Shown in pieces: positions 1 through 53,077 of a stretch of DNA of 64,000 nt. Location: assembly GCA_964440605.1 (NCBI GenBank), contig CAYTSW010000003.1, forward strand, positions 5,421-69,420. Direction: 5' to 3'. The notes beneath the pieces were generated by a model. The model was not told where the DNA came from. It did no database searches and saw only the letters and a list, made by a program, of their open reading frames with translations. Source of the DNA: an uncultured Phycisphaeraceae bacterium. Its GTDB lineage: Bacteria > Planctomycetota > Phycisphaerae > Phycisphaerales > UBA1924. Position 1 is the first letter of the stretch; each line of letters opens with the position of its first letter. The position numbers were made by a program, and so were the translations under genes.

Positions 1-888
1 GAGGTTGTGCGCGCAGGGGCAGCCGTCGGCGTCGTTGCGGGCGAAGTTGCTCACCTCATACCGCGCAAAGCCGCTCGCCGCGAGCGCCTCGACGGTGGCT
101 TCGTACATGTCGGCTTCGAGGTCTTCGTCGGCGGGGTCGAAGTCGCCGCGCTCGAGGCGCTTGGTCATCGCGGTGTTGGGCTCGTACGTCAGGGCGTAGG
201 CCGAGATGTGGCCTGAGCCGAGGTCGATGGCGGCCCGGAGGTCGGCGAGCCATTCGTCCATCGTCTGGCCCGGGATCGCGAAGATGAGGTCGAGGCTCAG
301 GCGGTTGATGTTGGCCTCGCGGGCGATCTGCAACGCCTTGGGGACGCTGGCGGGGTCGTGCCAGCGCTCGAGGGTCTTGAGATGGCGCGGGTTAAAGGTC
401 TGGGCGCCGATGCTCAGGCGGTTGACGCCGCCGGCGGCGAGCGTTTCCATCAACTCGGGTGTCGCGGTCTCGGGGTTGCACTCGACGGTCCACTCGGCGT
501 CCGGGGTGATGGTGAACCGCTGGTGGAGCGCGTCGAGGAGGCGTTGCCAGAGAGGGGTGCGGAGCAGGGTGGGCGTGCCGCCGCCGACGAAGAGTGTGTC
601 GAGGGGCGGGCGAGAGCGGTCAGCGGCTCGGCTGGTGTGCTCGGCGAGGGTGTCGAGTTCGCGGATGAGGGTGTTGGTGAAGGCTTCCTGGCGATCCCGG
701 GAGTCGACGAAGCTGTAGAAATCGCAGTAGTGGCACTTGTGAAAGCAGAACGGAATGTGGATGTAGAGCGAACGCGGGGGCGTCTGGAGCGCCTGAAGGG
801 GGGTGAGGGCGGTCGGCGTCGGGCCGGCTGCGGCTTCTGCCGGCGCGGATTGCCCGTTGACCGTGATGTCGGTAGTTTGGGGGGTCAT
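1..888 (-). CDS. hemW: Radical-SAM heme chaperone HemW / HemN-like protein, N-terminal 296 codons (3' end off the window)
   Basis: Minus-strand ORF from ATG 888 running off the left edge. It is the exact mirror of the first 888 nt of the complete copy at 48921..50231, which has the radical-SAM motif CFHKCHYC. Confidence 0.85.
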   Translation of the reverse strand, partial: MTPQTTDITVNGQSAPAEAAAGPTPTALTPLQALQTPPRSLYIHIPFCFHKCHYCDFYSFVDSRDRQEAFTNTLIRELDTLAEHTSRAADRSRPPLDTLFVGGGTPTLLRTPLWQRLLDALHQRFTITPDAEWTVECNPETATPELMETLAAGGVNRLSIGAQTFNPRHLKTLERWHDPASVPKALQIAREANINRLSLDLIFAIPGQTMDEWLADLRAAIDLGSGHISAYALTYEPNTAMTKRLERGDFDPADEDLEADMYEATVEALAASGFARYEVSNFARNDADGCPCAHNL

Positions 889-968
889 GCTCGCCGGGCT
901 CCCTACCTTCCGGAGGCCGTCGCGACCGCCTCTCGCGAGGCAGGAATGAACAGAGGATAGACCCGCCC

Positions 969-1532
969 ATGCCCGATCAGGTCCAGTCCGCGATTCGACT
1001 CATCGTCTTCAAGGCCGATGGCAGCAAGAAGACGCTCGGCTTGAAGGTCGGTCGGTACGTAGTGGGTCGGCACCACAACGCTTCGCTGCGGATCCCGCTG
1101 CCCTCGGTGTCGCGTCAGCACTGCGAGTTGATCTGCGAGCAGAGCACGCTGCGGGTGAAGGATCTGGGCTCGGCGAACGGGACGTACCGCAACAGCCAGC
1201 GGATTGAAGACGAGGCCGAGCTGCAAGCGGGCGACACGCTGGCGGTGGGGCCGGTGCAGATCGTCGTGCAGATCAACGGCGAGCCGGCGCAGGTGGATGC
1301 GCCGGCGGGCGGTGGGGGCGACGTCGACATGGAGGCGACGCCTCCCGCGGGCTCGCCGACGGTCGCGGATTCGAGCGACGACGACTCGGGGGCTTCGCAC
1401 GCGGACACCGACCTGGACGAGACGATCGCGCGCGAGACGGGCATGGGCAGCCTGCTCAAAGGCAACGCGGAAGACAGCAGCGTCTTCGATTTCGACTTCG
1501 ACTTCGAGGATGACGAGAACCCGAAACTGTGA
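969..1532 (+). CDS. FHA-domain protein with acidic C-terminal tail
   Basis: 187 aa. FHA-like core VGRHHNASLRIPLPSVSRQHCEL...VKDLGSANGTYRN...LQAGD. Divergent from hemW across an 80-bp spacer. Confidence 0.8.
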   Translation: MPDQVQSAIRLIVFKADGSKKTLGLKVGRYVVGRHHNASLRIPLPSVSRQHCELICEQSTLRVKDLGSANGTYRNSQRIEDEAELQAGDTLAVGPVQIVVQINGEPAQVDAPAGGGGDVDMEATPPAGSPTVADSSDDDSGASHADTDLDETIARETGMGSLLKGNAEDSSVFDFDFDFEDDENPKL

Positions 1533-1552
1533 ATGCGTGGCGCTCGCGCCGG

Positions 1553-1729
1553 TCAGGCGGCGTCGGGCTTGGCGGGTTGGGCCTTGGGCGCCGCCTTTTG
1601 CGGGACCATGATCTTGCTCCCGCAGTTGCGACAGCGGATAAGCCGCCCACGCGCCTCGACGGGGACCGCAAGGACGGCGCGGCACTTGAGGTTGGGACAC
1701 ATCATCCTGACGGCGTTCGCCTGATCCAT
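1553..1729 (-). CDS. Small zinc-ribbon protein (58 aa)
   Basis: ATG at 1727..1729 gives MDQANAVRMMCPNLKCRAVLAVPVEARGRLIRCRNCGSKIMVP... with two CxxC pairs. Confidence is moderate because the ORF is short. Confidence 0.45.
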   Translation of the reverse strand: MDQANAVRMMCPNLKCRAVLAVPVEARGRLIRCRNCGSKIMVPQKAAPKAQPAKPDAA

Positions 1730-1910
1730 GGCGGCTCCCGAGCGGGGTGGTGTGCGGAGCGGACAGCCTGACCGGACCGGGCTCCCGCCGCTATGCTCGC
1801 GTTGCATGTGGGTCATCGGAGCGCGAGGCCGCGTGCTTCACGCCGAGTCGCGGGCGCGTTGGTGGCCCGGCCGCACAATCCACCGCTCCACGGGCGTTTG
1901 CGTACCGCTT

Positions 1911-3335
1911 ATGTCAGACCTTCCCGCCGACCATGGATCATCCGAGCCCCGCCCGAGCGACCATCTGGCACGCCCGGCGCCCCGATTGACGGCCGCGATC
2001 ACAGGGCGCGGCGTCGCGGTGGTGGGTCTTCAGTGGGGCGACGAGGGTAAAGGCAAGGTGATCGACGCCATCGCCCCGCGCTTTCAGGCGGTGGTCCGAT
2101 ACAACGGCGGGGCCAACGCCGGGCACTCGATCGTCTTCGGGGGCAAGCGTCACTCGGTGCACCTGATCCCCTCGGGCGTCTTCAACAAGGGCTCGCGCCC
2201 GGTGATCGCCAACGGCGTGGTGATCGACCCGTTCACGCTCGTGCGCGAGATCGACGCGCTGGCGGGCGCGGGGGCGGACCTGACGCGCCTGTCGATCTCC
2301 GATCGCGCGCATCTGGTGATGCCCTACCACCAGGCGGAAGACGCCTCGCGCGAGGTGATGCTCGATGACCCGGCCAAGCAGGGGCCGAGCAAGCCCACGT
2401 CGGGCGCGATCGGGACGACGCGGCGCGGCATCGGGCCGGCGTACGCCGAGAAGGCGGCGCGATCGACGGCGATCCGCGCGGGCGACCTGCTCAGGACCGA
2501 GCTCCTGCGCGAGCGGCTGGAACTCGTGTGCGCGTTCAAGGCGGGCGGGAACACCATCGTCAACGCCCCGCCCGAAGCGCTGAACGCCGCGGAGCTCGCG
2601 CAGCGTCTCGGTGAGGTGGCGGGTCGACTCGGGCCTCAGCTCGACGACACGACGTACCTCCTGCACGACATGCTCCGGCGCGGCGAGCACGTGCTCTTCG
2701 AGGGGGCCAACGCGACGCTGCTGGACGTCGATCATGGCACGTTCCCCTTCGTGACCTCGTCGTCGACGACGGCGCTGGGCATCCCCGCGGGCACGGGCGT
2801 GCCGGGGTCGGCGATCAACGCGGTGATCGGCGTGGTCAAGGCGTACGGGACACGCGTGGGCGCCGGTCCCTTCCCGACGGAGCTGCACGACGACACCGGC
2901 GCGCGGATCCGCGAGCGGGGCAACGAGTTCGGCACGACCACCGGCCGCCCGCGACGCTGCGGCTGGCTCGACCTCGTCGCGGTGCGCTACGCCGCCATGG
3001 TCAACGGCGTCCACGCGCTGGCGATCATGCTGCTCGACGTGCTCGCGGGGTTTGACGAGCTCAAGGTGTGCACGGCCTACGAGCTGGGCGGCGTACGCAC
3101 CGACCGCTTCCCGCCCGACGCCGCGGATCTGTCCCGGGCCAAGCCGGTCTACGAGACGCTCGAAGGGTTCGCCGAAGAAGTCAGCGGTGCGCGCACGATG
3201 GACGACCTGCCGACGCCCGCGCGGGGGTATCTGGAGTTCATCGAGGCGTACGTCGGCGTGCCGATCCGGCTGGTGTCGGTGGGCGCCGATCGCGAGCAGA
3301 CGGTGGACGGGCTCGGGGAGCTGTTGCCGGGGTAA
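1911..3335 (+). CDS. purA: Adenylosuccinate synthetase
   Basis: P-loop QWGDEGKGKVID plus GIGPAY and TTGRPRRCGWLD motifs. I chose ATG 1911 (MSDLPADH...) over the ORF-track start at 1728, which adds an Arg-rich leader. Confidence 0.95.
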   Translation: MSDLPADHGSSEPRPSDHLARPAPRLTAAITGRGVAVVGLQWGDEGKGKVIDAIAPRFQAVVRYNGGANAGHSIVFGGKRHSVHLIPSGVFNKGSRPVIANGVVIDPFTLVREIDALAGAGADLTRLSISDRAHLVMPYHQAEDASREVMLDDPAKQGPSKPTSGAIGTTRRGIGPAYAEKAARSTAIRAGDLLRTELLRERLELVCAFKAGGNTIVNAPPEALNAAELAQRLGEVAGRLGPQLDDTTYLLHDMLRRGEHVLFEGANATLLDVDHGTFPFVTSSSTTALGIPAGTGVPGSAINAVIGVVKAYGTRVGAGPFPTELHDDTGARIRERGNEFGTTTGRPRRCGWLDLVAVRYAAMVNGVHALAIMLLDVLAGFDELKVCTAYELGGVRTDRFPPDAADLSRAKPVYETLEGFAEEVSGARTMDDLPTPARGYLEFIEAYVGVPIRLVSVGADREQTVDGLGELLPG

Positions 3336-3348
3336 GGGCGCGATCATC

Positions 3349-3467
3349 GTGCCACGGGTTGCTTGCAACCCGTGCTCCCCCGCGTGGCGCGGAGCGAGTG
3401 GTCCCGGCTGGTCGTAAAGCGGACGCTTGGGCGCGCGGGTTGCCGCTGCGCGGTCAACCCGTGGCAC
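3349..3467. repeat. REP-like pair of stem-loops sharing one stem sequence, between convergent genes
   Basis: Hairpin 1: CACGGGTTGC / GCAACCCGTG (3353..3374). Hairpin 2: CGGGTTG (3437..3443) / CAACCCG (3455..3461). Outer 13-nt inverted repeat: GTGCCACGGGTTG (3349..3361) / CAACCCGTGGCAC (3455..3467). Confidence 0.45.
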
Positions 3468-3479
3468 GTCGCTTTCGGT

Positions 3480-3944
3480 TCAGGGATTGTTGATCGCGGG
3501 TGGTTCGTGCAACTCGAAGACGAGGCGGTCGGTGTCGCCTCGGGTGAGGGTGAGTTTGTTGGCGGTGAGGCGGTAGCCATCGACGCGTTGGAGGGTTTGG
3601 ATGTAGCGGTCTTCGAACTGCCTGAGTTCGGGGGGGCCGGCCATGCGGGTGGTGCCGACGCCGCCGAGGCGGAAGCGGCCTTCGGTGAGGGCGGCGTTCT
3701 CGAGCGACGACGCGTAGCGGTTGACGCCGGCGAAGCCGCTGACGCGTCCGTCGGGGTCGATGGTGAGCGAGACGGGCTCGCGCGGGTCAGCGTTGGTGAT
3801 GGGCTGCCCGTCGATGGAGACGAGCTCCCAGTGGCCGGCGAGGCCGGTCTCCGGGGTGTACTCGGGCGAGCGATGGCGTTGGCAGGCGGTGAGGGTGATG
3901 AGGAGGGCGCAGGCGAGGAAGAGTCGGGCGGCGGCGGTGGTCAA
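3480..3944 (-). CDS. META-domain (HslJ-like) lipoprotein
   Basis: 154 aa. Signal peptide with lipobox LTAC, and a META/HslJ-like body (WELVSIDGQPI..., GFAGVNRY..., LTLTRGD...). The TTG start overlaps the upstream stop (TTGA at 3941..3944). Confidence 0.75.
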   Translation of the reverse strand: MTTAAARLFLACALLITLTACQRHRSPEYTPETGLAGHWELVSIDGQPITNADPREPVSLTIDPDGRVSGFAGVNRYASSLENAALTEGRFRLGGVGTTRMAGPPELRQFEDRYIQTLQRVDGYRLTANKLTLTRGDTDRLVFELHEPPAINNP

Positions 3945-6103
3945 CGGATGGCTCCCAGCTTGGCGAGGTCGTCCTTGGCGCGCTGCAGTCGCGTGGAGAC
4001 GTGCTTGTGCGCGCCGGGGTGCTTGTCGGGCTTGAAGACTTCCAGCGCGCTCTCGTAGTAGGCGACGGCTTCGGTCAGGTGGTCCTCACGGTCGCCGGGC
4101 AGCTTGCTCCAGGCCAGGCCGAGGTTGGCCTGGGTGCGGGCCCAGTCGACGGGCATCTGCTCGCGGGTGCGCACGGTCAGGGCGGCTTCGAAGGCCTCGA
4201 TGGCTTCGCGGACGTTCGTGCCGCGACCGGTGATGGGCAGGTGAAGGAGCGCCGAGCCGAGGTTGTTCTGCGTCGCGGCCCACTCGGCAGGGTGAGAGCC
4301 TCGGGTCCGCACCTGGAGGGCCGATCGGTAGCAGGCGATGGCCCGGCGCATGTTCCTTTCCCGCCCGTCGTCCTCGGCGGGGAGCAGGGCCCAGGCGTTG
4401 CCCAAGTTGCTCTGCGTGGCGCCCCACTCGCCCCGGCGATCGAGCTCGGACCAAACTTCGAGGGCGGACTGGTGACACGCGATGCCGCGCTCGACGTTCT
4501 GCTTGTGGTCGCCTCCCGGGAACTGGATCCACGCGTTGCCCAGGTTGTTCTGGAGCCGGGCCCAGTGGACGGCGTGGGCGTCGCGGGTGCGGATTTCGAG
4601 GGCGGCGGTGAAGCAGCGGATGGCCTGCTCGAGGGTGCGCATGCGGTCGGCTGTTGGCAGGCGTTCCCACGCGTGGCCCATCATGTTCTGCACGTTGGCC
4701 CAGCGTTCGGGGTGCTTGTCGCGTGTCCAGACGCGGGCGGTCTCGCGCAGGGACGCGATAGCGCGTTCGACGTTGGTGAAGCGGTCGCCCGTGGGCATCT
4801 CGATCCACGCCTGGGCGAGGTGGAGGCGCGACTCGGCCCACCAGTCGGCCTGCTGCGCCTGGTCGAAGATGTTGCCGGCCTGCTCGAAGCAGCGCACGGC
4901 TTCGTGCATGGCGTGGCTGCGGTCGGAGCCCCCGGTGAGCATCCACGACATGCCCAGCACGACGAGCGCCTTGCCGCGATCGGCGGAGCCGGCGGGTTGC
5001 TCGGAGACGGTGGTGTTGAGCAGGTCGAAGGCCTCGCGGAGGTTGTCGTCGCGGACGCCGCGCTCGCGGCGGAGGAGGGTCATGGCGACGTTCTGGCGCG
5101 TGCGTGGGTCGTCGCGGGTGGCGCGGGCGGTGCGGTAGTGGATCAGCGCCTCTTCGAAGCGGTGCTCGAAGTAGAAGCGGTCGCCCGTGATGGTCTCGCG
5201 TTCGAGCTTGTCGAGCTCGCGCAGGCAGGGCATGAGGCCTTCGGCGCGGACGAAGTCGCGTAAGGCAATGGCGGCGACGAGCCGGTCGAAGGGCGTTTCG
5301 CTCGTGCGCAGGCGCTTGGCGGCTGTGAGGACGTCTTCGGTGATGGCGGCGAGCATCGCGTCGCCCGGGCGCTTGTCGGCCAGCGCGCGGCGGACGAGGC
5401 CGAGATCGCCGGAGGCCGGGGCCTCGGCGCCCGGGGGCGCCATCACGGCCGCGTCGGACGCGGCGCGGGCGGGCTCGTCGCCCGCGGGCGGATCCTTCGC
5501 GGGAGCGCGCGTCTCGGAGCCGGCGGGCGGCTTCGGCGCGTCGGTCGTGGTCGATTGTCCACGGGCCCGCGTCGCGTCGGCGAAGGCGTCGGAAGCGGCG
5601 TCCTTGAGCAGCGGGACTTCGTCTTCGCCGTCGGCGCCGGAGAGCGGGCCGTCGAGCCACGCTTCGTAGTCGGCGAGTTGCTGGAGCAGGCCGTCGCCTC
5701 GTTCGGTGGCCCAGCGGACGAGATGGATGCGGAGCCACTGGTGTCGGCTGAGGGTGCCGTCGATGGCCATGGCCGAGACGGACATTGCCTGGCTCCAGGC
5801 GTGGGCCTTCTCGGTGGAAATCAGCGCGTGTCGGCGTCGTCCGGCGGCGAGGGCCTCGAGGGTGCGCCGCATGGTGCCGTAGCGCAGCACGAGCCGGGCG
5901 AGGAAGTTGCCCACGCGTTCGACGGTCTGGCGATCGGCGTGGCTCGCGACCGCGACCGTTTCAGCCACCAGCCCGACGAGCTCGGGCAGGATGGCCAGTC
6001 CGCCGGCGGGAACATCGGTCCTGCCCAAAGCGGTGCGGACCGCCCCGGAGCTGATGCTCCCCGTCGTCGCCACGAGGCGGGCGATCTGACGCGCTGATGC
6101 CAT
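3941..6103 (-). CDS. TPR-repeat protein (720 aa)
   Basis: The C-terminal two-thirds holds about 8 tandem ~42-aa units (W..TQNNLGNAW..LP.GDR..N...AI..Y..AL.V.TR...P..WA). Translationally coupled to the downstream META gene. Confidence 0.8.
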   Translation of the reverse strand: MASARQIARLVATTGSISSGAVRTALGRTDVPAGGLAILPELVGLVAETVAVASHADRQTVERVGNFLARLVLRYGTMRRTLEALAAGRRRHALISTEKAHAWSQAMSVSAMAIDGTLSRHQWLRIHLVRWATERGDGLLQQLADYEAWLDGPLSGADGEDEVPLLKDAASDAFADATRARGQSTTTDAPKPPAGSETRAPAKDPPAGDEPARAASDAAVMAPPGAEAPASGDLGLVRRALADKRPGDAMLAAITEDVLTAAKRLRTSETPFDRLVAAIALRDFVRAEGLMPCLRELDKLERETITGDRFYFEHRFEEALIHYRTARATRDDPRTRQNVAMTLLRRERGVRDDNLREAFDLLNTTVSEQPAGSADRGKALVVLGMSWMLTGGSDRSHAMHEAVRCFEQAGNIFDQAQQADWWAESRLHLAQAWIEMPTGDRFTNVERAIASLRETARVWTRDKHPERWANVQNMMGHAWERLPTADRMRTLEQAIRCFTAALEIRTRDAHAVHWARLQNNLGNAWIQFPGGDHKQNVERGIACHQSALEVWSELDRRGEWGATQSNLGNAWALLPAEDDGRERNMRRAIACYRSALQVRTRGSHPAEWAATQNNLGSALLHLPITGRGTNVREAIEAFEAALTVRTREQMPVDWARTQANLGLAWSKLPGDREDHLTEAVAYYESALEVFKPDKHPGAHKHVSTRLQRAKDDLAKLGAIR

Positions 6104-6174
6104 CGGGCCAGTCTACCGCGCTTCGCGCTCAGGCCCAATGGGCTTGTTGATGAGCCCCGGCGGGCGACGAAACA

Positions 6175-6202
6175 GGTCGGCCCGCCTGCGGGCGGGCCGA
6201 CC
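6175..6202 (-). terminator. Intrinsic-terminator-type hairpin downstream of the PEP-CTERM gene
   Basis: GGTCGGCCCGCC-TGCG-GGCGGGCCGACC, a perfect 12-bp stem, followed on the minus strand by TGTTTCGTC. Confidence 0.55.
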
Positions 6203-6231
6203 CGGGGTGATCCGCTCAGATGAAGATGTCA

Positions 6232-6894
6232 TCAGCGGCGGCGGCGGAGACCAAGCAGGCCCGCACCGGCGAGAACCGCGGCGGCGCCGGGGGCCGGCAC
6301 GCCGTACGACACCGCGTCGATGCCGAAGCTGTCGCCGGCGGTGGCGCGGATGGTGACTTCGGTGAAGGTCGCGGCGTTGATGAGCCCGACGGATTGGAGG
6401 TCGGAGCCGGGGTTGGCGTCATCGAAGATGGTGAGAGAGTCGCCCGCATCGGTGGTGAGGATCGCGCGGGGGCTGAGCGCTTGGTCGAGGCCCAGCAGGT
6501 CGGTCAGGTCGAGGAAGAAGGCGGCGATGGGGCTGTTGAAGGTGAAGGTGACGACGACGTCATTGTTCTGGCCGGAGTTGAACAACGAGCCGACGTTGAT
6601 GTGCTGATCGCCGTCGGTCGCGAAGGTGCCGCCCGGCCCGGTCGCGCCGAGCACGGAGAGGGGCGTGATGAAGGTAAACCCTTCGTTGACCGCGTCGATC
6701 TGAAAGTCGTCGACCGCGACGGTGTCGCGCTGGGCCGAGCTGGGATCGAGTGGGAGGCCTTCGAAGGACTCGAAGCTGAGGGGGATGTTCGCGCCCGCGG
6801 CGGCGGCCTCGAACGCCATGCGATCGTCGAACGTCTGACCCGTGGCGGCGCCGCACACGGCGAGCACACCGATACCGGAGATAATCTTGTACAT
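6232..6894 (-). CDS. PEP-CTERM sorting-domain secreted protein
   Basis: ATG 6894 is preceded by GGAAGGA. N-terminal signal peptide MYKIISGIGVLAVCGAATGQ. The C-terminus VPAPGAAAVLAGAGLLGLRRRR is VPxP + TM + Arg cluster. Confidence 0.8.
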   Translation of the reverse strand: MYKIISGIGVLAVCGAATGQTFDDRMAFEAAAAGANIPLSFESFEGLPLDPSSAQRDTVAVDDFQIDAVNEGFTFITPLSVLGATGPGGTFATDGDQHINVGSLFNSGQNNDVVVTFTFNSPIAAFFLDLTDLLGLDQALSPRAILTTDAGDSLTIFDDANPGSDLQSVGLINAATFTEVTIRATAGDSFGIDAVSYGVPAPGAAAVLAGAGLLGLRRRR

Positions 6895-7306
6895 CTCACA
6901 ATCCTTCCGTTTGTCGTGTCTGACAGGAGTCTCGCCGGCCGTTGTGCACAGGAGGCCGGTACCGAATATACGGTGCCACCAATCGGTTGGATCCGCAAAT
7001 ATGCCTTCCCCAATCGGAATCAAGCGTAATCGTTTTCAATGATGCTGCTCGATAACGCAAGGGTTCGCAACGCGGGGAACGGCGAGGTTGGTGTACGTGG
7101 CGGCGCGGCTATTGGAGCCGCGGCAGTCGTGCGTTGTTCTTTGCGTGGCGGGGTATCGCGATCGGTCCGTGAACTGTGCGTTCATCGGAGAAATCTGCAT
7201 TGGTGCTGAGCAGATACGCGGCTAGTCTGCGCTTGGCCGTTGCCCATCGCTGCGCGGCGACGCTGAACCAAAGACCTACACCCATTTCGGAACGGAGCGC
7301 GGACTG

Positions 7307-8869
7307 ATGGTGACCGAGACGAAGACGACCCCGGCGCGGACGGGCGGGCGGTGTGCTCCCGCGGCGATCGGATGGATGGTCGCGATGGCAGGCGTGCTGA
7401 TCGCGGGCGGCGTGGCTCACGCCGGGTCGTGCGACCCGCAGGACCTCTTCGGTCCCGATGTGCTCTATGACACGGGCAACGGACCCTTCTCCCTAGCGAT
7501 CGGCGACCTGGACGGCGACGGCGATGAGGACCTGGCGGTCGCGAACGCCAACAGCGACAACGTCAGCGTGCTGCTGAACAACGGCGACGGCACCTTCGCG
7601 TCCGACGTGCTCTACGGCGCGGGCGACGCGCCCGTGTCCGTGGTGATCGGCGACCTGAACGGCGATGGCGATGCCGATCTGGCCGTCGCGAACCAGATCA
7701 CCGACAACGTCAGCGTGCTGCTGAACAATGGCGACGGCACCTTCGCGTCCGACGTGCTCTACGGCGCGGGCGACGCGCCGCGGTCCATCGCCATCGGTGA
7801 CCTCGACGGCGATGGCGACGCCGACCTCGCCGTGGCCAACTTCAACAGCAACAACGTCAGCGTGCTGCTCAACAACGGCAACGGCACGTTCGCGTCGGAT
7901 GTGCTCTACGGCGCGGGCAACGCGCCGTCCGCCGTGGCCATCGAAGATCTGGACGGCGACGGCGACGCCGACCTGGTGGTGGCGAATAGCGGCCTGTTCG
8001 GTGGGGGCGACAACGTCAGCGTGCTGCTGAACAACGGGAATGGGACCTTCGCAAGCGACGTGCTCTACGGCGCGGGCAACGGGCCTTTCTCCGTCGCGAT
8101 CGGCGATCTCGATGGCGATGGCGACGCCGACCTCGCCGTTGCGAACAGCCTCGGCGGCAATGTCAGCGTGTTGCTGAACAACGGGAACGGGACCTTTGCC
8201 GTCGACGTGCTCTACGGCGCGAGGTTCGGGGCCATCTCGGTGGCGATCGGAGACCTGGACGACGACGGTGACGCCGACCTGGCGGTGGCGAACTCTGACT
8301 TCGACGACATCAGCGTGTTGCCGAACAACGGCAACGGCACTTTCGCAGCCGATGTGCTCTACGGCGTCGGCACCGACCCCTTCTCTGTAGCGGTCGGCGA
8401 CCTCAACGGCGACGGCCGGGCCGACCTTGCCGCGGCGAACCAAGACAGCGACAACGTCAGCGTGTTGCTGAACCAGTGTCCCATCGCACCCGTCATCACG
8501 GGCCAACCGGAGCGTGTGGTCCTCCTGCCGATTGGCGGCGGAACCACCGAGCTCACCGTCACCGTGTTCGGTAGCCCGCCGCTGACGTACCAGTGGTCGA
8601 AGGACGGTGTGCCGCTGACCGACGGCGGCAGCATCTCGGGCGCGCAGTCGCCAACGCTGAGCGTCAACGCGATGCCGCAGGACGTGGGCGTCTACGAGGT
8701 GCTCGTGACCAACGCGGGCGGCAGCGCGACAAGCGATCCTGCGGTGATCGCCATACGCCCGCCACTGCCTTCGACGTGCTCGGCCGACTTCAACAGCGAC
8801 GGCCAGGTCGACGGCGCCGACTTCGGCGCGTTCGGCGCTCAGTTCGGGCGGACGGACTGTCTCGACTGA
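7307..8869 (+). CDS. Secreted FG-GAP/VCBS seven-repeat (beta-propeller-type) protein with Ig-like domain and dockerin-like C-terminus
   Basis: Seven tandem ~49-aa repeats (DVLYGAG..P.SVAIGDLDGDGDADLAVAN...DNVSVLLNNGNGTFAS) span about nt 7457..8476. They are followed by an Ig-like segment (LTYQWSKDGVPL...VYEVLVTNAGGS) and DFNSDGQVDGADFGAFGAQFG. Confidence 0.85.
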   Translation: MVTETKTTPARTGGRCAPAAIGWMVAMAGVLIAGGVAHAGSCDPQDLFGPDVLYDTGNGPFSLAIGDLDGDGDEDLAVANANSDNVSVLLNNGDGTFASDVLYGAGDAPVSVVIGDLNGDGDADLAVANQITDNVSVLLNNGDGTFASDVLYGAGDAPRSIAIGDLDGDGDADLAVANFNSNNVSVLLNNGNGTFASDVLYGAGNAPSAVAIEDLDGDGDADLVVANSGLFGGGDNVSVLLNNGNGTFASDVLYGAGNGPFSVAIGDLDGDGDADLAVANSLGGNVSVLLNNGNGTFAVDVLYGARFGAISVAIGDLDDDGDADLAVANSDFDDISVLPNNGNGTFAADVLYGVGTDPFSVAVGDLNGDGRADLAAANQDSDNVSVLLNQCPIAPVITGQPERVVLLPIGGGTTELTVTVFGSPPLTYQWSKDGVPLTDGGSISGAQSPTLSVNAMPQDVGVYEVLVTNAGGSATSDPAVIAIRPPLPSTCSADFNSDGQVDGADFGAFGAQFGRTDCLD

Positions 8870-8889
8870 TCGAGGCTGCGCAGCGCAAC

Positions 8890-11885: not shown

Positions 11886-11973
11886 GGGGACACTCTATGG
11901 CCCGGCGTGCCGCGCGGTAGGCTTTGCGCGCGACGCATGCCCGATCCCCCTGTCGCTACGGAGGACACTCCTG

Positions 11974-13446: not shown

Positions 13447-13703
13447 GCGGATCGAGTCGAGGGTGCCCGGCGCCCGGCTACCAAGCTCTGTGACGGGTGC
13501 CACTGGCGGCTTGTCCGCCGGTGTGCAGCGTTACGGCGAACACGGGCGGGCGAGCCGCCCGTGGCACCCGATGAGTGATGGCCGCGTCGTCGCGCGTGCG
13601 TCTTCGCGGTTTTCCGGCAATCGCCGGGAGGCCGCGGCGTTGAGCGTGGTGTCGGTGGCACAACGTCACCAACCGCACCACTAGGAGCCTGAGGAGGTTC
13701 ACG

Positions 13704-37835: not shown

Positions 37836-37923
37836 CAGGAGTGTCCTCCGTAGCGACAGGGGGATCGGGCATGCGTCGCGCGCAAAGCCTACCGCGCGGC
37901 ACGCCGGGCCATAGAGTGTCCCC

Positions 37924-40919: not shown

Positions 40920-40939
40920 GTTGCGCTGCGCAGCCTCGA

Positions 40940-42502: not shown

Positions 42503-42914
42503 CAGTCCGCGCTCCGTTCCGAAATGGGTGTAGGTCTTTGGTTCAGCGTCGCCGCGCAGCGATGGGCAACGGCCAAGCGCAGACTAGCCGCGTATCTGCT
42601 CAGCACCAATGCAGATTTCTCCGATGAACGCACAGTTCACGGACCGATCGCGATACCCCGCCACGCAAAGAACAACGCACGACTGCCGCGGCTCCAATAG
42701 CCGCGCCGCCACGTACACCAACCTCGCCGTTCCCCGCGTTGCGAACCCTTGCGTTATCGAGCAGCATCATTGAAAACGATTACGCTTGATTCCGATTGGG
42801 GAAGGCATATTTGCGGATCCAACCGATTGGTGGCACCGTATATTCGGTACCGGCCTCCTGTGCACAACGGCCGGCGAGACTCCTGTCAGACACGACAAAC
42901 GGAAGGATTGTGAG

Positions 42915-43577
42915 ATGTACAAGATTATCTCCGGTATCGGTGTGCTCGCCGTGTGCGGCGCCGCCACGGGTCAGACGTTCGACGATCGCATGGCGTTCGA
43001 GGCCGCCGCCGCGGGCGCGAACATCCCCCTCAGCTTCGAGTCCTTCGAAGGCCTCCCACTCGATCCCAGCTCGGCCCAGCGCGACACCGTCGCGGTCGAC
43101 GACTTTCAGATCGACGCGGTCAACGAAGGGTTTACCTTCATCACGCCCCTCTCCGTGCTCGGCGCGACCGGGCCGGGCGGCACCTTCGCGACCGACGGCG
43201 ATCAGCACATCAACGTCGGCTCGTTGTTCAACTCCGGCCAGAACAATGACGTCGTCGTCACCTTCACCTTCAACAGCCCCATCGCCGCCTTCTTCCTCGA
43301 CCTGACCGACCTGCTGGGCCTCGACCAAGCGCTCAGCCCCCGCGCGATCCTCACCACCGATGCGGGCGACTCTCTCACCATCTTCGATGACGCCAACCCC
43401 GGCTCCGACCTCCAATCCGTCGGGCTCATCAACGCCGCGACCTTCACCGAAGTCACCATCCGCGCCACCGCCGGCGACAGCTTCGGCATCGACGCGGTGT
43501 CGTACGGCGTGCCGGCCCCCGGCGCCGCCGCGGTTCTCGCCGGTGCGGGCCTGCTTGGTCTCCGCCGCCGCCGCTGA
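42915..43577 (+). CDS. PEP-CTERM sorting-domain secreted protein (mirror copy)
   Basis: Mirror of 6232..6894; identical translation. Confidence 0.8.
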   Translation: MYKIISGIGVLAVCGAATGQTFDDRMAFEAAAAGANIPLSFESFEGLPLDPSSAQRDTVAVDDFQIDAVNEGFTFITPLSVLGATGPGGTFATDGDQHINVGSLFNSGQNNDVVVTFTFNSPIAAFFLDLTDLLGLDQALSPRAILTTDAGDSLTIFDDANPGSDLQSVGLINAATFTEVTIRATAGDSFGIDAVSYGVPAPGAAAVLAGAGLLGLRRRR

Positions 43578-43606
43578 TGACATCTTCATCTGAGCGGATC
43601 ACCCCG

Positions 43607-43634
43607 GGTCGGCCCGCCCGCAGGCGGGCCGACC
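43607..43634 (+). terminator. Terminator-type hairpin after the PEP-CTERM gene (mirror copy)
   Basis: Mirror of 6175..6202. Confidence 0.55.
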
Positions 43635-43705
43635 TGTTTCGTCGCCCGCCGGGGCTCATCAACAAGCCCATTGGGCCTGAGCGCGAAGCGCGGTAGACTG
43701 GCCCG

Positions 43706-45868
43706 ATGGCATCAGCGCGTCAGATCGCCCGCCTCGTGGCGACGACGGGGAGCATCAGCTCCGGGGCGGTCCGCACCGCTTTGGGCAGGACCGATGTTCC
43801 CGCCGGCGGACTGGCCATCCTGCCCGAGCTCGTCGGGCTGGTGGCTGAAACGGTCGCGGTCGCGAGCCACGCCGATCGCCAGACCGTCGAACGCGTGGGC
43901 AACTTCCTCGCCCGGCTCGTGCTGCGCTACGGCACCATGCGGCGCACCCTCGAGGCCCTCGCCGCCGGACGACGCCGACACGCGCTGATTTCCACCGAGA
44001 AGGCCCACGCCTGGAGCCAGGCAATGTCCGTCTCGGCCATGGCCATCGACGGCACCCTCAGCCGACACCAGTGGCTCCGCATCCATCTCGTCCGCTGGGC
44101 CACCGAACGAGGCGACGGCCTGCTCCAGCAACTCGCCGACTACGAAGCGTGGCTCGACGGCCCGCTCTCCGGCGCCGACGGCGAAGACGAAGTCCCGCTG
44201 CTCAAGGACGCCGCTTCCGACGCCTTCGCCGACGCGACGCGGGCCCGTGGACAATCGACCACGACCGACGCGCCGAAGCCGCCCGCCGGCTCCGAGACGC
44301 GCGCTCCCGCGAAGGATCCGCCCGCGGGCGACGAGCCCGCCCGCGCCGCGTCCGACGCGGCCGTGATGGCGCCCCCGGGCGCCGAGGCCCCGGCCTCCGG
44401 CGATCTCGGCCTCGTCCGCCGCGCGCTGGCCGACAAGCGCCCGGGCGACGCGATGCTCGCCGCCATCACCGAAGACGTCCTCACAGCCGCCAAGCGCCTG
44501 CGCACGAGCGAAACGCCCTTCGACCGGCTCGTCGCCGCCATTGCCTTACGCGACTTCGTCCGCGCCGAAGGCCTCATGCCCTGCCTGCGCGAGCTCGACA
44601 AGCTCGAACGCGAGACCATCACGGGCGACCGCTTCTACTTCGAGCACCGCTTCGAAGAGGCGCTGATCCACTACCGCACCGCCCGCGCCACCCGCGACGA
44701 CCCACGCACGCGCCAGAACGTCGCCATGACCCTCCTCCGCCGCGAGCGCGGCGTCCGCGACGACAACCTCCGCGAGGCCTTCGACCTGCTCAACACCACC
44801 GTCTCCGAGCAACCCGCCGGCTCCGCCGATCGCGGCAAGGCGCTCGTCGTGCTGGGCATGTCGTGGATGCTCACCGGGGGCTCCGACCGCAGCCACGCCA
44901 TGCACGAAGCCGTGCGCTGCTTCGAGCAGGCCGGCAACATCTTCGACCAGGCGCAGCAGGCCGACTGGTGGGCCGAGTCGCGCCTCCACCTCGCCCAGGC
45001 GTGGATCGAGATGCCCACGGGCGACCGCTTCACCAACGTCGAACGCGCTATCGCGTCCCTGCGCGAGACCGCCCGCGTCTGGACACGCGACAAGCACCCC
45101 GAACGCTGGGCCAACGTGCAGAACATGATGGGCCACGCGTGGGAACGCCTGCCAACAGCCGACCGCATGCGCACCCTCGAGCAGGCCATCCGCTGCTTCA
45201 CCGCCGCCCTCGAAATCCGCACCCGCGACGCCCACGCCGTCCACTGGGCCCGGCTCCAGAACAACCTGGGCAACGCGTGGATCCAGTTCCCGGGAGGCGA
45301 CCACAAGCAGAACGTCGAGCGCGGCATCGCGTGTCACCAGTCCGCCCTCGAAGTTTGGTCCGAGCTCGATCGCCGGGGCGAGTGGGGCGCCACGCAGAGC
45401 AACTTGGGCAACGCCTGGGCCCTGCTCCCCGCCGAGGACGACGGGCGGGAAAGGAACATGCGCCGGGCCATCGCCTGCTACCGATCGGCCCTCCAGGTGC
45501 GGACCCGAGGCTCTCACCCTGCCGAGTGGGCCGCGACGCAGAACAACCTCGGCTCGGCGCTCCTTCACCTGCCCATCACCGGTCGCGGCACGAACGTCCG
45601 CGAAGCCATCGAGGCCTTCGAAGCCGCCCTGACCGTGCGCACCCGCGAGCAGATGCCCGTCGACTGGGCCCGCACCCAGGCCAACCTCGGCCTGGCCTGG
45701 AGCAAGCTGCCCGGCGACCGTGAGGACCACCTGACCGAAGCCGTCGCCTACTACGAGAGCGCGCTGGAAGTCTTCAAGCCCGACAAGCACCCCGGCGCGC
45801 ACAAGCACGTCTCCACGCGACTGCAGCGCGCCAAGGACGACCTCGCCAAGCTGGGAGCCATCCGTTGA
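43706..45868 (+). CDS. TPR-repeat protein (mirror copy)
   Basis: Mirror of 3941..6103; identical translation. Confidence 0.8.
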   Translation: MASARQIARLVATTGSISSGAVRTALGRTDVPAGGLAILPELVGLVAETVAVASHADRQTVERVGNFLARLVLRYGTMRRTLEALAAGRRRHALISTEKAHAWSQAMSVSAMAIDGTLSRHQWLRIHLVRWATERGDGLLQQLADYEAWLDGPLSGADGEDEVPLLKDAASDAFADATRARGQSTTTDAPKPPAGSETRAPAKDPPAGDEPARAASDAAVMAPPGAEAPASGDLGLVRRALADKRPGDAMLAAITEDVLTAAKRLRTSETPFDRLVAAIALRDFVRAEGLMPCLRELDKLERETITGDRFYFEHRFEEALIHYRTARATRDDPRTRQNVAMTLLRRERGVRDDNLREAFDLLNTTVSEQPAGSADRGKALVVLGMSWMLTGGSDRSHAMHEAVRCFEQAGNIFDQAQQADWWAESRLHLAQAWIEMPTGDRFTNVERAIASLRETARVWTRDKHPERWANVQNMMGHAWERLPTADRMRTLEQAIRCFTAALEIRTRDAHAVHWARLQNNLGNAWIQFPGGDHKQNVERGIACHQSALEVWSELDRRGEWGATQSNLGNAWALLPAEDDGRERNMRRAIACYRSALQVRTRGSHPAEWAATQNNLGSALLHLPITGRGTNVREAIEAFEAALTVRTREQMPVDWARTQANLGLAWSKLPGDREDHLTEAVAYYESALEVFKPDKHPGAHKHVSTRLQRAKDDLAKLGAIR

Positions 45869-46329
45869 CCACCGCCGCCGCCCGACTCTTCCTCGCCTGC
45901 GCCCTCCTCATCACCCTCACCGCCTGCCAACGCCATCGCTCGCCCGAGTACACCCCGGAGACCGGCCTCGCCGGCCACTGGGAGCTCGTCTCCATCGACG
46001 GGCAGCCCATCACCAACGCTGACCCGCGCGAGCCCGTCTCGCTCACCATCGACCCCGACGGACGCGTCAGCGGCTTCGCCGGCGTCAACCGCTACGCGTC
46101 GTCGCTCGAGAACGCCGCCCTCACCGAAGGCCGCTTCCGCCTCGGCGGCGTCGGCACCACCCGCATGGCCGGCCCCCCCGAACTCAGGCAGTTCGAAGAC
46201 CGCTACATCCAAACCCTCCAACGCGTCGATGGCTACCGCCTCACCGCCAACAAACTCACCCTCACCCGAGGCGACACCGACCGCCTCGTCTTCGAGTTGC
46301 ACGAACCACCCGCGATCAACAATCCCTGA
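45865..46329 (+). CDS. META-domain (HslJ-like) lipoprotein (mirror copy)
   Basis: Mirror of 3480..3944; identical translation. Confidence 0.75.
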   Translation: MTTAAARLFLACALLITLTACQRHRSPEYTPETGLAGHWELVSIDGQPITNADPREPVSLTIDPDGRVSGFAGVNRYASSLENAALTEGRFRLGGVGTTRMAGPPELRQFEDRYIQTLQRVDGYRLTANKLTLTRGDTDRLVFELHEPPAINNP

Positions 46330-46341
46330 ACCGAAAGCGAC

Positions 46342-46460
46342 GTGCCACGGGTTGACCGCGCAGCGGCAACCCGCGCGCCCAAGCGTCCGCTTTACGACCA
46401 GCCGGGACCACTCGCTCCGCGCCACGCGGGGGAGCACGGGTTGCAAGCAACCCGTGGCAC
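46342..46460. repeat. REP-like stem-loop pair (mirror copy)
   Basis: Mirror of 3349..3467. Confidence 0.45.
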
Positions 46461-46473
46461 GATGATCGCGCCC

Positions 46474-47898
46474 TTACCCCGGCAACAGCTCCCCGAGCCC
46501 GTCCACCGTCTGCTCGCGATCGGCGCCCACCGACACCAGCCGGATCGGCACGCCGACGTACGCCTCGATGAACTCCAGATACCCCCGCGCGGGCGTCGGC
46601 AGGTCGTCCATCGTGCGCGCACCGCTGACTTCTTCGGCGAACCCTTCGAGCGTCTCGTAGACCGGCTTGGCCCGGGACAGATCCGCGGCGTCGGGCGGGA
46701 AGCGGTCGGTGCGTACGCCGCCCAGCTCGTAGGCCGTGCACACCTTGAGCTCGTCAAACCCCGCGAGCACGTCGAGCAGCATGATCGCCAGCGCGTGGAC
46801 GCCGTTGACCATGGCGGCGTAGCGCACCGCGACGAGGTCGAGCCAGCCGCAGCGTCGCGGGCGGCCGGTGGTCGTGCCGAACTCGTTGCCCCGCTCGCGG
46901 ATCCGCGCGCCGGTGTCGTCGTGCAGCTCCGTCGGGAAGGGACCGGCGCCCACGCGTGTCCCGTACGCCTTGACCACGCCGATCACCGCGTTGATCGCCG
47001 ACCCCGGCACGCCCGTGCCCGCGGGGATGCCCAGCGCCGTCGTCGACGACGAGGTCACGAAGGGGAACGTGCCATGATCGACGTCCAGCAGCGTCGCGTT
47101 GGCCCCCTCGAAGAGCACGTGCTCGCCGCGCCGGAGCATGTCGTGCAGGAGGTACGTCGTGTCGTCGAGCTGAGGCCCGAGTCGACCCGCCACCTCACCG
47201 AGACGCTGCGCGAGCTCCGCGGCGTTCAGCGCTTCGGGCGGGGCGTTGACGATGGTGTTCCCGCCCGCCTTGAACGCGCACACGAGTTCCAGCCGCTCGC
47301 GCAGGAGCTCGGTCCTGAGCAGGTCGCCCGCGCGGATCGCCGTCGATCGCGCCGCCTTCTCGGCGTACGCCGGCCCGATGCCGCGCCGCGTCGTCCCGAT
47401 CGCGCCCGACGTGGGCTTGCTCGGCCCCTGCTTGGCCGGGTCATCGAGCATCACCTCGCGCGAGGCGTCTTCCGCCTGGTGGTAGGGCATCACCAGATGC
47501 GCGCGATCGGAGATCGACAGGCGCGTCAGGTCCGCCCCCGCGCCCGCCAGCGCGTCGATCTCGCGCACGAGCGTGAACGGGTCGATCACCACGCCGTTGG
47601 CGATCACCGGGCGCGAGCCCTTGTTGAAGACGCCCGAGGGGATCAGGTGCACCGAGTGACGCTTGCCCCCGAAGACGATCGAGTGCCCGGCGTTGGCCCC
47701 GCCGTTGTATCGGACCACCGCCTGAAAGCGCGGGGCGATGGCGTCGATCACCTTGCCTTTACCCTCGTCGCCCCACTGAAGACCCACCACCGCGACGCCG
47801 CGCCCTGTGATCGCGGCCGTCAATCGGGGCGCCGGGCGTGCCAGATGGTCGCTCGGGCGGGGCTCGGATGATCCATGGTCGGCGGGAAGGTCTGACAT
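46474..47898 (-). CDS. purA: Adenylosuccinate synthetase (mirror copy)
   Basis: Mirror of 1911..3335; identical translation. Confidence 0.95.
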   Translation of the reverse strand: MSDLPADHGSSEPRPSDHLARPAPRLTAAITGRGVAVVGLQWGDEGKGKVIDAIAPRFQAVVRYNGGANAGHSIVFGGKRHSVHLIPSGVFNKGSRPVIANGVVIDPFTLVREIDALAGAGADLTRLSISDRAHLVMPYHQAEDASREVMLDDPAKQGPSKPTSGAIGTTRRGIGPAYAEKAARSTAIRAGDLLRTELLRERLELVCAFKAGGNTIVNAPPEALNAAELAQRLGEVAGRLGPQLDDTTYLLHDMLRRGEHVLFEGANATLLDVDHGTFPFVTSSSTTALGIPAGTGVPGSAINAVIGVVKAYGTRVGAGPFPTELHDDTGARIRERGNEFGTTTGRPRRCGWLDLVAVRYAAMVNGVHALAIMLLDVLAGFDELKVCTAYELGGVRTDRFPPDAADLSRAKPVYETLEGFAEEVSGARTMDDLPTPARGYLEFIEAYVGVPIRLVSVGADREQTVDGLGELLPG

Positions 47899-48079
47899 AA
47901 GCGGTACGCAAACGCCCGTGGAGCGGTGGATTGTGCGGCCGGGCCACCAACGCGCCCGCGACTCGGCGTGAAGCACGCGGCCTCGCGCTCCGATGACCCA
48001 CATGCAACGCGAGCATAGCGGCGGGAGCCCGGTCCGGTCAGGCTGTCCGCTCCGCACACCACCCCGCTCGGGAGCCGCC

Positions 48080-48256
48080 ATGGATCAGGCGAACGCCGTC
48101 AGGATGATGTGTCCCAACCTCAAGTGCCGCGCCGTCCTTGCGGTCCCCGTCGAGGCGCGTGGGCGGCTTATCCGCTGTCGCAACTGCGGGAGCAAGATCA
48201 TGGTCCCGCAAAAGGCGGCGCCCAAGGCCCAACCCGCCAAGCCCGACGCCGCCTGA
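48080..48256 (+). CDS. Small zinc-ribbon protein (mirror copy)
   Basis: Mirror of 1553..1729. Confidence 0.45.
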   Translation: MDQANAVRMMCPNLKCRAVLAVPVEARGRLIRCRNCGSKIMVPQKAAPKAQPAKPDAA

Positions 48257-48276
48257 CCGGCGCGAGCGCCACGCAT

Positions 48277-48840
48277 TCACAGTTTCGGGTTCTCGTCATC
48301 CTCGAAGTCGAAGTCGAAATCGAAGACGCTGCTGTCTTCCGCGTTGCCTTTGAGCAGGCTGCCCATGCCCGTCTCGCGCGCGATCGTCTCGTCCAGGTCG
48401 GTGTCCGCGTGCGAAGCCCCCGAGTCGTCGTCGCTCGAATCCGCGACCGTCGGCGAGCCCGCGGGAGGCGTCGCCTCCATGTCGACGTCGCCCCCACCGC
48501 CCGCCGGCGCATCCACCTGCGCCGGCTCGCCGTTGATCTGCACGACGATCTGCACCGGCCCCACCGCCAGCGTGTCGCCCGCTTGCAGCTCGGCCTCGTC
48601 TTCAATCCGCTGGCTGTTGCGGTACGTCCCGTTCGCCGAGCCCAGATCCTTCACCCGCAGCGTGCTCTGCTCGCAGATCAACTCGCAGTGCTGACGCGAC
48701 ACCGAGGGCAGCGGGATCCGCAGCGAAGCGTTGTGGTGCCGACCCACTACGTACCGACCGACCTTCAAGCCGAGCGTCTTCTTGCTGCCATCGGCCTTGA
48801 AGACGATGAGTCGAATCGCGGACTGGACCTGATCGGGCAT
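48277..48840 (-). CDS. FHA-domain protein (mirror copy)
   Basis: Mirror of 969..1532; identical translation. Confidence 0.8.
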   Translation of the reverse strand: MPDQVQSAIRLIVFKADGSKKTLGLKVGRYVVGRHHNASLRIPLPSVSRQHCELICEQSTLRVKDLGSANGTYRNSQRIEDEAELQAGDTLAVGPVQIVVQINGEPAQVDAPAGGGGDVDMEATPPAGSPTVADSSDDDSGASHADTDLDETIARETGMGSLLKGNAEDSSVFDFDFDFEDDENPKL

Positions 48841-48920
48841 GGGCGGGTCTATCCTCTGTTCATTCCTGCCTCGCGAGAGGCGGTCGCGACGGCCTCCGGA
48901 AGGTAGGGAGCCCGGCGAGC

Positions 48921-50231
48921 ATGACCCCCCAAACTACCGACATCACGGTCAACGGGCAATCCGCGCCGGCAGAAGCCGCAGCCGGCCCGACGCCGACCGC
49001 CCTCACCCCCCTTCAGGCGCTCCAGACGCCCCCGCGTTCGCTCTACATCCACATTCCGTTCTGCTTTCACAAGTGCCACTACTGCGATTTCTACAGCTTC
49101 GTCGACTCCCGGGATCGCCAGGAAGCCTTCACCAACACCCTCATCCGCGAACTCGACACCCTCGCCGAGCACACCAGCCGAGCCGCTGACCGCTCTCGCC
49201 CGCCCCTCGACACACTCTTCGTCGGCGGCGGCACGCCCACCCTGCTCCGCACCCCTCTCTGGCAACGCCTCCTCGACGCGCTCCACCAGCGGTTCACCAT
49301 CACCCCGGACGCCGAGTGGACCGTCGAGTGCAACCCCGAGACCGCGACACCCGAGTTGATGGAAACGCTCGCCGCCGGCGGCGTCAACCGCCTGAGCATC
49401 GGCGCCCAGACCTTTAACCCGCGCCATCTCAAGACCCTCGAGCGCTGGCACGACCCCGCCAGCGTCCCCAAGGCGTTGCAGATCGCCCGCGAGGCCAACA
49501 TCAACCGCCTGAGCCTCGACCTCATCTTCGCGATCCCGGGCCAGACGATGGACGAATGGCTCGCCGACCTCCGGGCCGCCATCGACCTCGGCTCAGGCCA
49601 CATCTCGGCCTACGCCCTGACGTACGAGCCCAACACCGCGATGACCAAGCGCCTCGAGCGCGGCGACTTCGACCCCGCCGACGAAGACCTCGAAGCCGAC
49701 ATGTACGAAGCCACCGTCGAGGCGCTCGCGGCGAGCGGCTTTGCGCGGTATGAGGTGAGCAACTTCGCCCGCAACGACGCCGACGGCTGCCCCTGCGCGC
49801 ACAACCTCGCCTATTGGCGCAACCACCAGTGGCTCGCCGCCGGCCCCTCGGCCTCGGGTCACCTGGCCGGCTGGCGTTGGAAGAACATCCCCAACCTCAC
49901 CCGCTGGATGCACGGCGTGCACTCCACGGGCGCTTCACCCGCCATCGACCTCGAGCCACCCGACCCGAGGCGCGCGCTGGCCGAGCGCATCATGACCGGC
50001 TTGCGCTTGACGGAGGGGCTCGAAGTGGCCGAACTCCAAGCCACCGCGACGCCGCTCGACGCCTGGCCCGCCCTCGAACGCCGCGCCCAACTCTGGACCG
50101 ACCGCGGCCTGCTCACCCGCACCCCGACCCATTGGCGCCTCACCAACCAAGGCTGGCTCCAAGCCGACGGCATCGCCAGCGACCTGATGAGCACGCTCGA
50201 CCTTGAGCAACCAACCGACGCGTGCCACTGA
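48921..50231 (+). CDS. hemW: Radical-SAM heme chaperone HemW / oxygen-independent coproporphyrinogen-III-oxidase-like protein (complete copy)
   Basis: 436 aa. LYIHIPFCFHKCHYCDFYS radical-SAM cluster motif and a HemN-like body. Only 48921..49808 is demonstrably inside the palindrome, because the window starts at the mirror of 49808. Confidence 0.9.
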   Translation: MTPQTTDITVNGQSAPAEAAAGPTPTALTPLQALQTPPRSLYIHIPFCFHKCHYCDFYSFVDSRDRQEAFTNTLIRELDTLAEHTSRAADRSRPPLDTLFVGGGTPTLLRTPLWQRLLDALHQRFTITPDAEWTVECNPETATPELMETLAAGGVNRLSIGAQTFNPRHLKTLERWHDPASVPKALQIAREANINRLSLDLIFAIPGQTMDEWLADLRAAIDLGSGHISAYALTYEPNTAMTKRLERGDFDPADEDLEADMYEATVEALAASGFARYEVSNFARNDADGCPCAHNLAYWRNHQWLAAGPSASGHLAGWRWKNIPNLTRWMHGVHSTGASPAIDLEPPDPRRALAERIMTGLRLTEGLEVAELQATATPLDAWPALERRAQLWTDRGLLTRTPTHWRLTNQGWLQADGIASDLMSTLDLEQPTDACH

Positions 50232-53075: not shown

Positions 53076-53077
53076 CT

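Follow-up and report, generated by a model that had tools for sequence, protein, structure and literature searches.

The 64,000-nucleotide stretch of contig CAYTSW010000003.1 analysed here, from an uncultured Phycisphaeraceae bacterium and referred to throughout as the window, contains a perfect palindrome of 49.8 kb, whose presence in the sequence file is confirmed. The palindrome is very probably a fold-back that arose in the library or the assembly at the loop of a terminator hairpin, with a single arm that is real. A first-pass annotation of the same DNA had proposed a fold-back artefact with one real arm, and this proposal gains support from the position of the axis in the loop of a predicted, conserved terminator, from the absence of gcvT from the window, and from an orphan contig, L095, that carries the other half of the hairpin.

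A direct base check finds positions x and 49809-x complementary in 24,904 of 24,904 pairs, with no mismatches and no indels, exactly as the first-pass annotation had described for the whole of 1..49808. A palindrome of this length and exactness is far beyond chance. Its centre reads ACGACAGCGCCCGCCGA followed directly by TCGGCGGGCGCTGTCGT, which places the axis at 24904/24905 with no spacer. Inspection of the centre reveals no foreign or adapter-like bases, and a missed SMRTbell or other adapter was rejected as the cause because there are no extra bases at the axis. All genes of the arm are duplicated in mirror; gyrA, purA and fumC are among the nineteen doubled genes previously counted, and their mirror coordinates agree. 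The exact proteins of the window, those of the flank among them, belong to one NCBI contig 71,918 bp long, so the left arm reaches at most 7,918 bp past the window, the arm measures at most 32,822 bp, and the whole contig is not a palindrome. The earlier suggestion that the palindrome may run beyond the window could thus hold for at most that distance, but not for the contig overall. The left arm is almost certainly a redundant mirrored copy and the right arm a genuine chromosomal segment, because no unique sequence is attached to the left arm inside the window. The transition at 49808/49809 was considered as a second DNA boundary and rejected, as it only mirrors the first position of the window and is situated within an uninterrupted HemN-like gene at 48921-50231.

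Reading frames around the axis were assigned by the G+C content of the third codon position (GC3). The axis is intergenic, lying 44 nt past the TGA (24858-24860) of a 638-amino-acid gene, hyp649, the last gene before it. A location inside a gene was rejected, since the 735-amino-acid open reading frame that crosses the axis is in the wrong frame (GC3 of 0.64 versus 0.86). The core at the turning point, CGCCCGCC-GATC-GGCGGGCG, is a perfect palindrome centred on the axis and is able to snap back and self-prime; its stem starts 34 nt, and the centre of its loop lies 44 nt, after the hyp649 stop codon. Judged from sequence, this core is most likely the stem-loop of the intrinsic terminator of the 638-amino-acid gene. 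A terminator scan of the window detects the stem-loop but no T-run at the axis, and this failure of the window alone is expected if the right half of the terminator was overwritten by the mirror. The native genome would be the same as the window up to 24914, whereas from 24915 onward the native T-run (TTTTTCGTGCGC...) would have been replaced by the mirror of the left side. The 638-amino-acid protein itself has no Pfam match. Its sequence opens with a signal-peptide-like N-terminus and includes five repeats rich in Cys (GACCFDD..C...C), a stretch rich in Asp (DxDxDGDVD) and, at the C-terminus, the conserved motif RWYK.NVIP.FAGQR.

Examination of gene order in relatives supplies the context that the window lacks. 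The h237-h391-gyrA-STAS block (17247-22667 in the window) is syntenic across dozens of Phycisphaerales metagenome-assembled genomes (MAGs; loci L006-L085), and in the majority of the 80 loci retrieved, STAS, an anti-anti-sigma-like gene, lies directly 3' of gyrA. L006 is the closest relative, and its STAS is followed by a hyp649 homolog with the same C-terminal motif, by an 82-nt spacer with a stem-loop and a T-run, and by a convergent gcvT. Further relative contigs were recovered by searching with the L006 GcvT, and the order gyrA-STAS-hyp649 homolog followed by convergent gcvT is present in seven related lineages on ten contigs (L006, L086/87/88, L089, L090, L091, L092/93 and L094). The spacers between hyp649 and gcvT range from 67 to 163 nt, and a G+C-rich stem followed by a T-rich run occurs in all eight that were folded. 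The L086 spacer carries a GATC loop, as does the window axis. All ten relatives' contigs read through their hyp649/gcvT terminator hairpins, and gcvT is not found in the window. The hyp649 homologs, among them those of L006 (6313-7797), L089 (3910-5586), L092 (2621-4030) and L094 (8904-10247), share just 29-45% identity, and the position of the gene after gyrA-STAS is kept in a Phycisphaerales subgroup despite this low identity.

A probable counterpart of the missing half was found among assemblies of hypersaline microbial mats from the Salar de Atacama, the source of the contigs that are nearly identical to the window. Run ERR2407577 of the same mat project yielded L095, a MEGAHIT contig of 5,385 bp whose G+C content is 69.6% against 69.3% for the window and which encodes the GcvT protein P0024. 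It ends 44 nt past the gcvT stop codon, in ...GCGCACGAAAAACGC, so that its reverse complement begins GCGTTTTTCGTGCGCTC, and these last bases are the ortholog of the right-hand terminator half that the window lacks. Across 1.6 Mb of retrieved DNA there are six copies of the 11-mer TTTTCGTGCGC, five at a hyp/gcvT terminator (L086/87/88 and L092/93) and one at the end of L095. Within the loci searched, those of the window and of the seven relatives, the left-side motif GTTCCA..ACGACA is present only at the window axis and at the L090 terminator. An alignment brings the left side of the window and the right side from L095 into register with the full-length spacers of L086 and L090.

The native junction was modelled as the window up to 24914 followed by TTTTTCGTGCGCTCTCGG..., the reverse complement of L095. 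The modelled join gives a 95-nt spacer, ...GCACGACAG-CGCCCGCC-GATC-GGCGGGCG-TTTTT-CGTGCGCTC..., which folds into a canonical stem followed by T5. Identity matrices place the L095 GcvT, the window gyrA and the window STAS each as an outgroup to the L006/L089/L092 clade, with the L095 GcvT and the window gyrA both nearest to L094. L095-type and window proteins occur in the same sources (NCBI, JGI/IMG, ENA and Logan). The tetranucleotide similarity between L095 and the window, 0.978, falls inside the window's own range of 0.968-0.986 and is non-discriminating, as several relatives score equally high. Because synteny, shared terminator motifs and phylogenetic placement agree, we conclude from the sequence comparison that L095 is in all likelihood the true right-hand neighbour, with a predicted native order of hyp649-terminator-gcvT. 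The modelled site resembles known intrinsic terminators in its 8-bp G+C stem, its 4-nt loop, a T5 taken from L095, its location after a stop codon and a position kept in seven lineages; it differs in that the window itself has no T-run and in that termination is a prediction.

A 6,949-bp ENA contig carries the same L095-type CPBP-TrpS-hyp-DtxR-gcvT block (GcvT P0138, CPBP P0148); it leaves 1,436 nt of its length unaccounted for and might cross the terminator. In the search for a contig spanning the junction, exact-protein look-ups with the 640- and 638-amino-acid forms of the last gene gave no match, the 33-mer adjoining the axis had no matches in metagenome contigs, and scans guided by the 640-amino-acid protein likewise returned no match from either metagenome or genome contigs. 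A 17-mer search of viral contigs produced 12 IMG/VR matches, which were taken as chance. Upstream of gcvT, the relatives L086, L089, L091, L092 and L094 carry ACT-panC-gcvT, whereas the Atacama lineage carries CPBP protease-TrpS-hypothetical-DtxR-gcvT (L095 1-5341), so the gene order has been rearranged beyond the conserved terminator as seen from hyp649.

GC skew is consistent with the modelled junction. Read toward the axis, the left arm has a skew of +0.093 and is G-rich throughout, whatever the gene orientation, while L095 read toward its hairpin end has a skew of -0.125 and is C-rich in five of five 1-kb windows, its reverse complement giving +0.125. Third-position skew ranges from -0.30 to -0.36 in the L095 genes and from -0.31 to -0.37 in the counter-oriented genes of the window. 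Skew thus runs on unbroken through the modelled junction, the pattern of an ordinary internal position in a chromosome, and shows no convergence on the axis of the kind expected for an old chromosome end.

The gyrA gene places the organism, an inhabitant of the Salar de Atacama hypersaline mats, in the Phycisphaerales (Planctomycetota), with the best species representative 76% identical. The Atacama contigs closest to the window are listed with the coordinates of the main features in Table 1. The mat data of PRJEB25599 and ERP107533 are sonicated Illumina TruSeq libraries (10.1101/870428; PMC7872239). The NCBI assembly is apparently fragmented, with neighbouring genes on contigs of 9.7 kb and at most 6.9 kb. 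The last 46 nt of L001 (14678-14723) match neither the window nor its reverse complement and are unrelated to the axis; the break falls in the Cys-rich repeat region of the 638-amino-acid gene, where the repeats probably caused a mis-join at the end of the contig.

Table 1. Features of the window and contigs that match it, with positions numbered from the first nucleotide of the window.
Feature	Position (strand)	Mirror position (strand)	Description
Left arm	1..24904		Exact reverse complement of 24905-49808; joined to no unique sequence within the window
Right arm	24905..49808		Continuous with the unique flank 49809-64000
Right-arm genes, toward the axis	(-)		purA, META-domain, TPR, FG-GAP, histidine kinase-receiver-HTH, fumC, EF-hand, PMT_2, 2 hypothetical, gyrA, STAS, 638-aa hypothetical
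Unique flank	49809..64000		Rest of HemN-like gene, methyltransferase, VWA, AAA, DUF4230, GGDEF, aldehyde dehydrogenase, SIMPL; unmirrored within the window
purA	1728-3335	46474-48081 (-)	
fumC	11974-13446	36363-37835	
gyrA	19440-22175 (+)	27634-30369 (-)	
hyp649	22944..24860 (+)	24949-26865 (-)	638 aa, predicted secreted, Cys-rich hypothetical; GC3-supported; P0001 100%, P0014 identical
Turning point	24895..24914		20-nt fully self-complementary core CGCCCGCC-GATC-GGCGGGCG; 8-bp G+C stem, self-complementary GATC loop
L002 final bases	24886..24898 (+)		GCACGACAGCGCC; L002 ends 6 nt short of the axis, in the left stem strand
Contig L001			JGI 3300012009; covers part of the right arm; 99.8% identical over 14.7 kb, 0 gaps
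Contig L002			MEGAHIT, ERR2407578; Tebenquiche/La Brava mats (with L004); 99.7-99.9% identical (L002, L004)
Contig L004			MEGAHIT, ERR2407577; 99.7% identical to part of the right arm
Contig L005			Laguna Brava run ERR1878617, Logan assembly; covers part of the right arm, 1.6 kb at 100% identity

Other features of the window are incidental to the palindrome. ARAGORN finds no tRNA or tmRNA genes in the 64 kb. The purA open reading frame at 46474-48081 (-) encodes 535 amino acids, with the adenylosuccinate synthetase domain beginning at residue 97; the exact 535-amino-acid sequence was not found in the protein collection, and the true start codon probably lies about 90 codons downstream. A 746-amino-acid protein at 38679-40919 (+), mirrored at 8890-11130 (-), combines HisKA-HATPase_c, a receiver and a C-terminal XRE-type helix-turn-helix, joining sensor kinase, response regulator and DNA binding in one polypeptide.

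The favoured sequence of events begins with a real genome in which the 638-amino-acid gene would be followed by a rho-independent terminator and then by convergent gcvT. At the G+C-rich hairpin the normal read path would be lost, so that the contig end could be extended by a snap-back link alone. A strand whose end lies in the stem would fold via the self-complementary GATC loop and extend along its own upstream sequence, or the assembler would follow such a link, and would then walk the same sequence again as the reverse complement; a rare snap-back link at a dead end would suffice for this continuation. Arms produced by walking one path twice are base-identical by construction, and a self-complementary loop allows the fold-back to leave no spacer. 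We infer that the fold-back step occurred through self-priming in library end-repair or the polymerase chain reaction (PCR), through a long fold-back read, or through graph traversal, and native reads joining both halves presumably exist. L002 ends at 24898, six nucleotides before the axis, and L095 at about axis+8, so that the 13-nt tip CGCCGATCGGCGG (24899-24911) is covered by neither; that two independent contigs end inside the stem points to normal read paths being lost at the hairpin. A palindrome or branch in the MEGAHIT graph was also considered as the cause of the L002 end and rejected by reasoning, as a true palindrome would place the end at about axis+64 and a branch at about axis+10, not at -6.

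Comparable behaviour of stem-loops is documented. Genome gaps have been located at stable stem-loops between coding regions, likely terminators, where the polymerase halts, folds back and self-primes (Hurt et al. 2012, PMC3409199), inverted repeats give rise to chimeric reads in sonicated libraries (Chen et al. 2024, PMC10908179), and fold-backs make up approximately 0.55-0.6% of nanopore reads from genomic DNA and can entangle the assembly graph (Heinz et al. 2026, PMC12870357). The present case is like these stem-loop artefacts in its G+C-rich stem-loop between convergent genes, in contigs that end in the stem and in the lack of foreign bases at the junction. It is unlike them in scale, each arm of the deposited contig spanning at least 24.9 kb, a length that calls for an assembler to propagate the link, and in being known here from assembled sequence.

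Several points weigh against this account. The link between L095 and the window as parts of the same genome consists of co-occurrence, composition and phylogenetic placement rather than linkage, and no contig joining the hyp649 and gcvT halves was found in this species, their adjacency following from orthology and synteny. The Illumina evidence is that of the datasets found for these mats. At the hairpin, each of the three assemblies of this species breaks down, the source contig by folding back and L002 and L095 by stopping, whereas ten contigs of relatives cross equally strong hairpins. By our own reasoning, the contig ends at -6 and +8 also fit poorly with a simple graph branch between native and fold-back paths, for which ends at about +10 and -10 are expected.

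The same artefact could have another origin, in which no graph was walked twice and the contig end was extended by a single long fold-back read or by several of them (from nanopore template-complement read-through, a ligation chimera or a PacBio missed adapter). We consider this origin possible but rather unlikely. Nanopore fold-back reads can recur at the same sites (PMC12870357), and an arm of 25-33 kb is a typical long-read overshoot. The arms are, however, wholly identical, with 0 indels against Illumina contigs over 14.7 kb; no adapter sequence is present at the axis; the mat datasets found are Illumina and the NCBI assembly looks fragmented; and PacBio HiFi data are virtually without fold-backs (PMC12870357). 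The origins named in the first-pass annotation, multiple-displacement amplification, a missed SMRTbell adapter or nanopore read-through, are likewise not supported by the 0 gaps in 14.7 kb against Illumina contigs, the 100% match to the Logan contig of ERR1878617 and the Illumina TruSeq mat libraries. A short-read graph walked twice is at least as likely a route as a long fold-back read, because of the lack of indels against Illumina contigs, the complete Logan identity and the apparently fragmented NCBI assembly.

Both artefact routes differ from a reading in which the palindrome marks a true telomere. A linear chromosome or replicon would end in a covalently closed hairpin at 24904, with reads rounding the tip, and L095 would be the other telomere, formed after a protelomerase resolved a palindromic site between hyp649 and gcvT. 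Such an ending is very unlikely, although a perfect palindrome runs through the tip with no spacer, as a hairpin telomere requires; an artefact at a self-complementary loop would look alike. Two independent short-read contigs stop 6-7 nt from the tip, one on each side, and the site is uncrossed in any assembly of this species while the relatives' assemblies cross theirs. The ends of L002 and L095 also share the pattern GCACGA-N3/4-CGC. A pair of telomeres produced by the same resolvase would show such a resemblance, but it is equally expected of the two strands of one hairpin stem. In Borrelia, hairpin wrap-arounds lack Illumina coverage, and long-read assemblies carry terminal inverse duplications of 5-18 kb (10.1101/2025.07.18.665644). 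These duplications resemble the window in forming a perfect palindrome of several to tens of kilobases at a contig end, near the tip of which short-read contigs stop. They differ in that the axis here is a predicted, conserved terminator, the halves are contiguous in relatives, skew is continuous, no resolvase gene is seen in the window, and the lineage has no known linear replicons.

Further evidence from the locus argues against a telomere. The site has the character of an ordinary, positionally conserved terminator with a T-run, which relatives' contigs read through, and the skew of the left arm (+0.093) and of L095 (-0.125) does not converge on the tip, so that only a very recent linearisation fits. 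Related chromosome-level MAGs carry gyrA internally. No protelomerase domain occurs in the 30 window proteins scanned against Pfam, which cover 39 kb of unique sequence, and we know of no linear chromosome in the Planctomycetota. The telomere alternative raised in the first-pass annotation is therefore weakened by synteny and GC skew, while it still fits the perfect palindrome. That a Phycisphaerales chromosome in the Atacama mats was recently linearised at the palindromic hyp649-gcvT terminator, leaving L002/window and L095 as its ends, is the most novel of the readings and one to which we assign very little probability.

A real and very recent in vivo palindromic duplication, formed by snap-back synthesis at the terminator quasi-palindrome (a symmetric inversion duplication), is very unlikely. 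The zero divergence of the arms fits, and such events begin at this kind of short inverted repeat. Bacteria, however, do not stably maintain perfect palindromes of great length (SbcCD), the consensus of a metagenome represents the population majority and should not be dominated by a rare, unstable rearrangement, independent assemblies of two other runs stop at the hairpin and contain no mirror-image junction, and the native junction should persist yet is also unassembled, so that the model explains nothing extra, nor the contig breaks. Symmetric tandem inversion duplications in Salmonella are rare and unstable, with further junctions and raised copy number, and Tanaka and colleagues reportedly described in 2002 palindromic amplification started by short inverted repeats. 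The window is like both in having its junction exactly at a short natural inverted repeat and in its identical arms; copy number and a second junction are features of the Salmonella duplications, whereas the window is read from its assembled sequence.

The fold-back at the terminator loop, very probable as it is, has direct consequences for use of the deposited genome. A 71.9-kb MAG contig would hold 25-33 kb of mirrored, non-existent sequence, in which gyrA, purA, fumC and about 16 further genes falsely appear a second time. The mirrored arm would inflate genome size and apparent contamination or duplication, and would hide the true neighbour, gcvT. Positions 1-24904 are to be treated as redundant, and the true continuation would be the reverse complement of L095.

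The locus also offers a clean worked example of a fold-back start site, here a self-complementary loop in the predicted G+C-rich terminator that separates two convergent genes, and suggests that fold-backs can be detected without reads, by combining synteny in relatives with a search for an orphan contig carrying the other half of the hairpin. If the telomere reading were true, the organism would possess the first linear, hairpin-ended chromosome in the Planctomycetota. As it stands, the palindrome is of low interest as biology, and its main value lies in data quality, as a useful flag on a deposited Phycisphaerales MAG.

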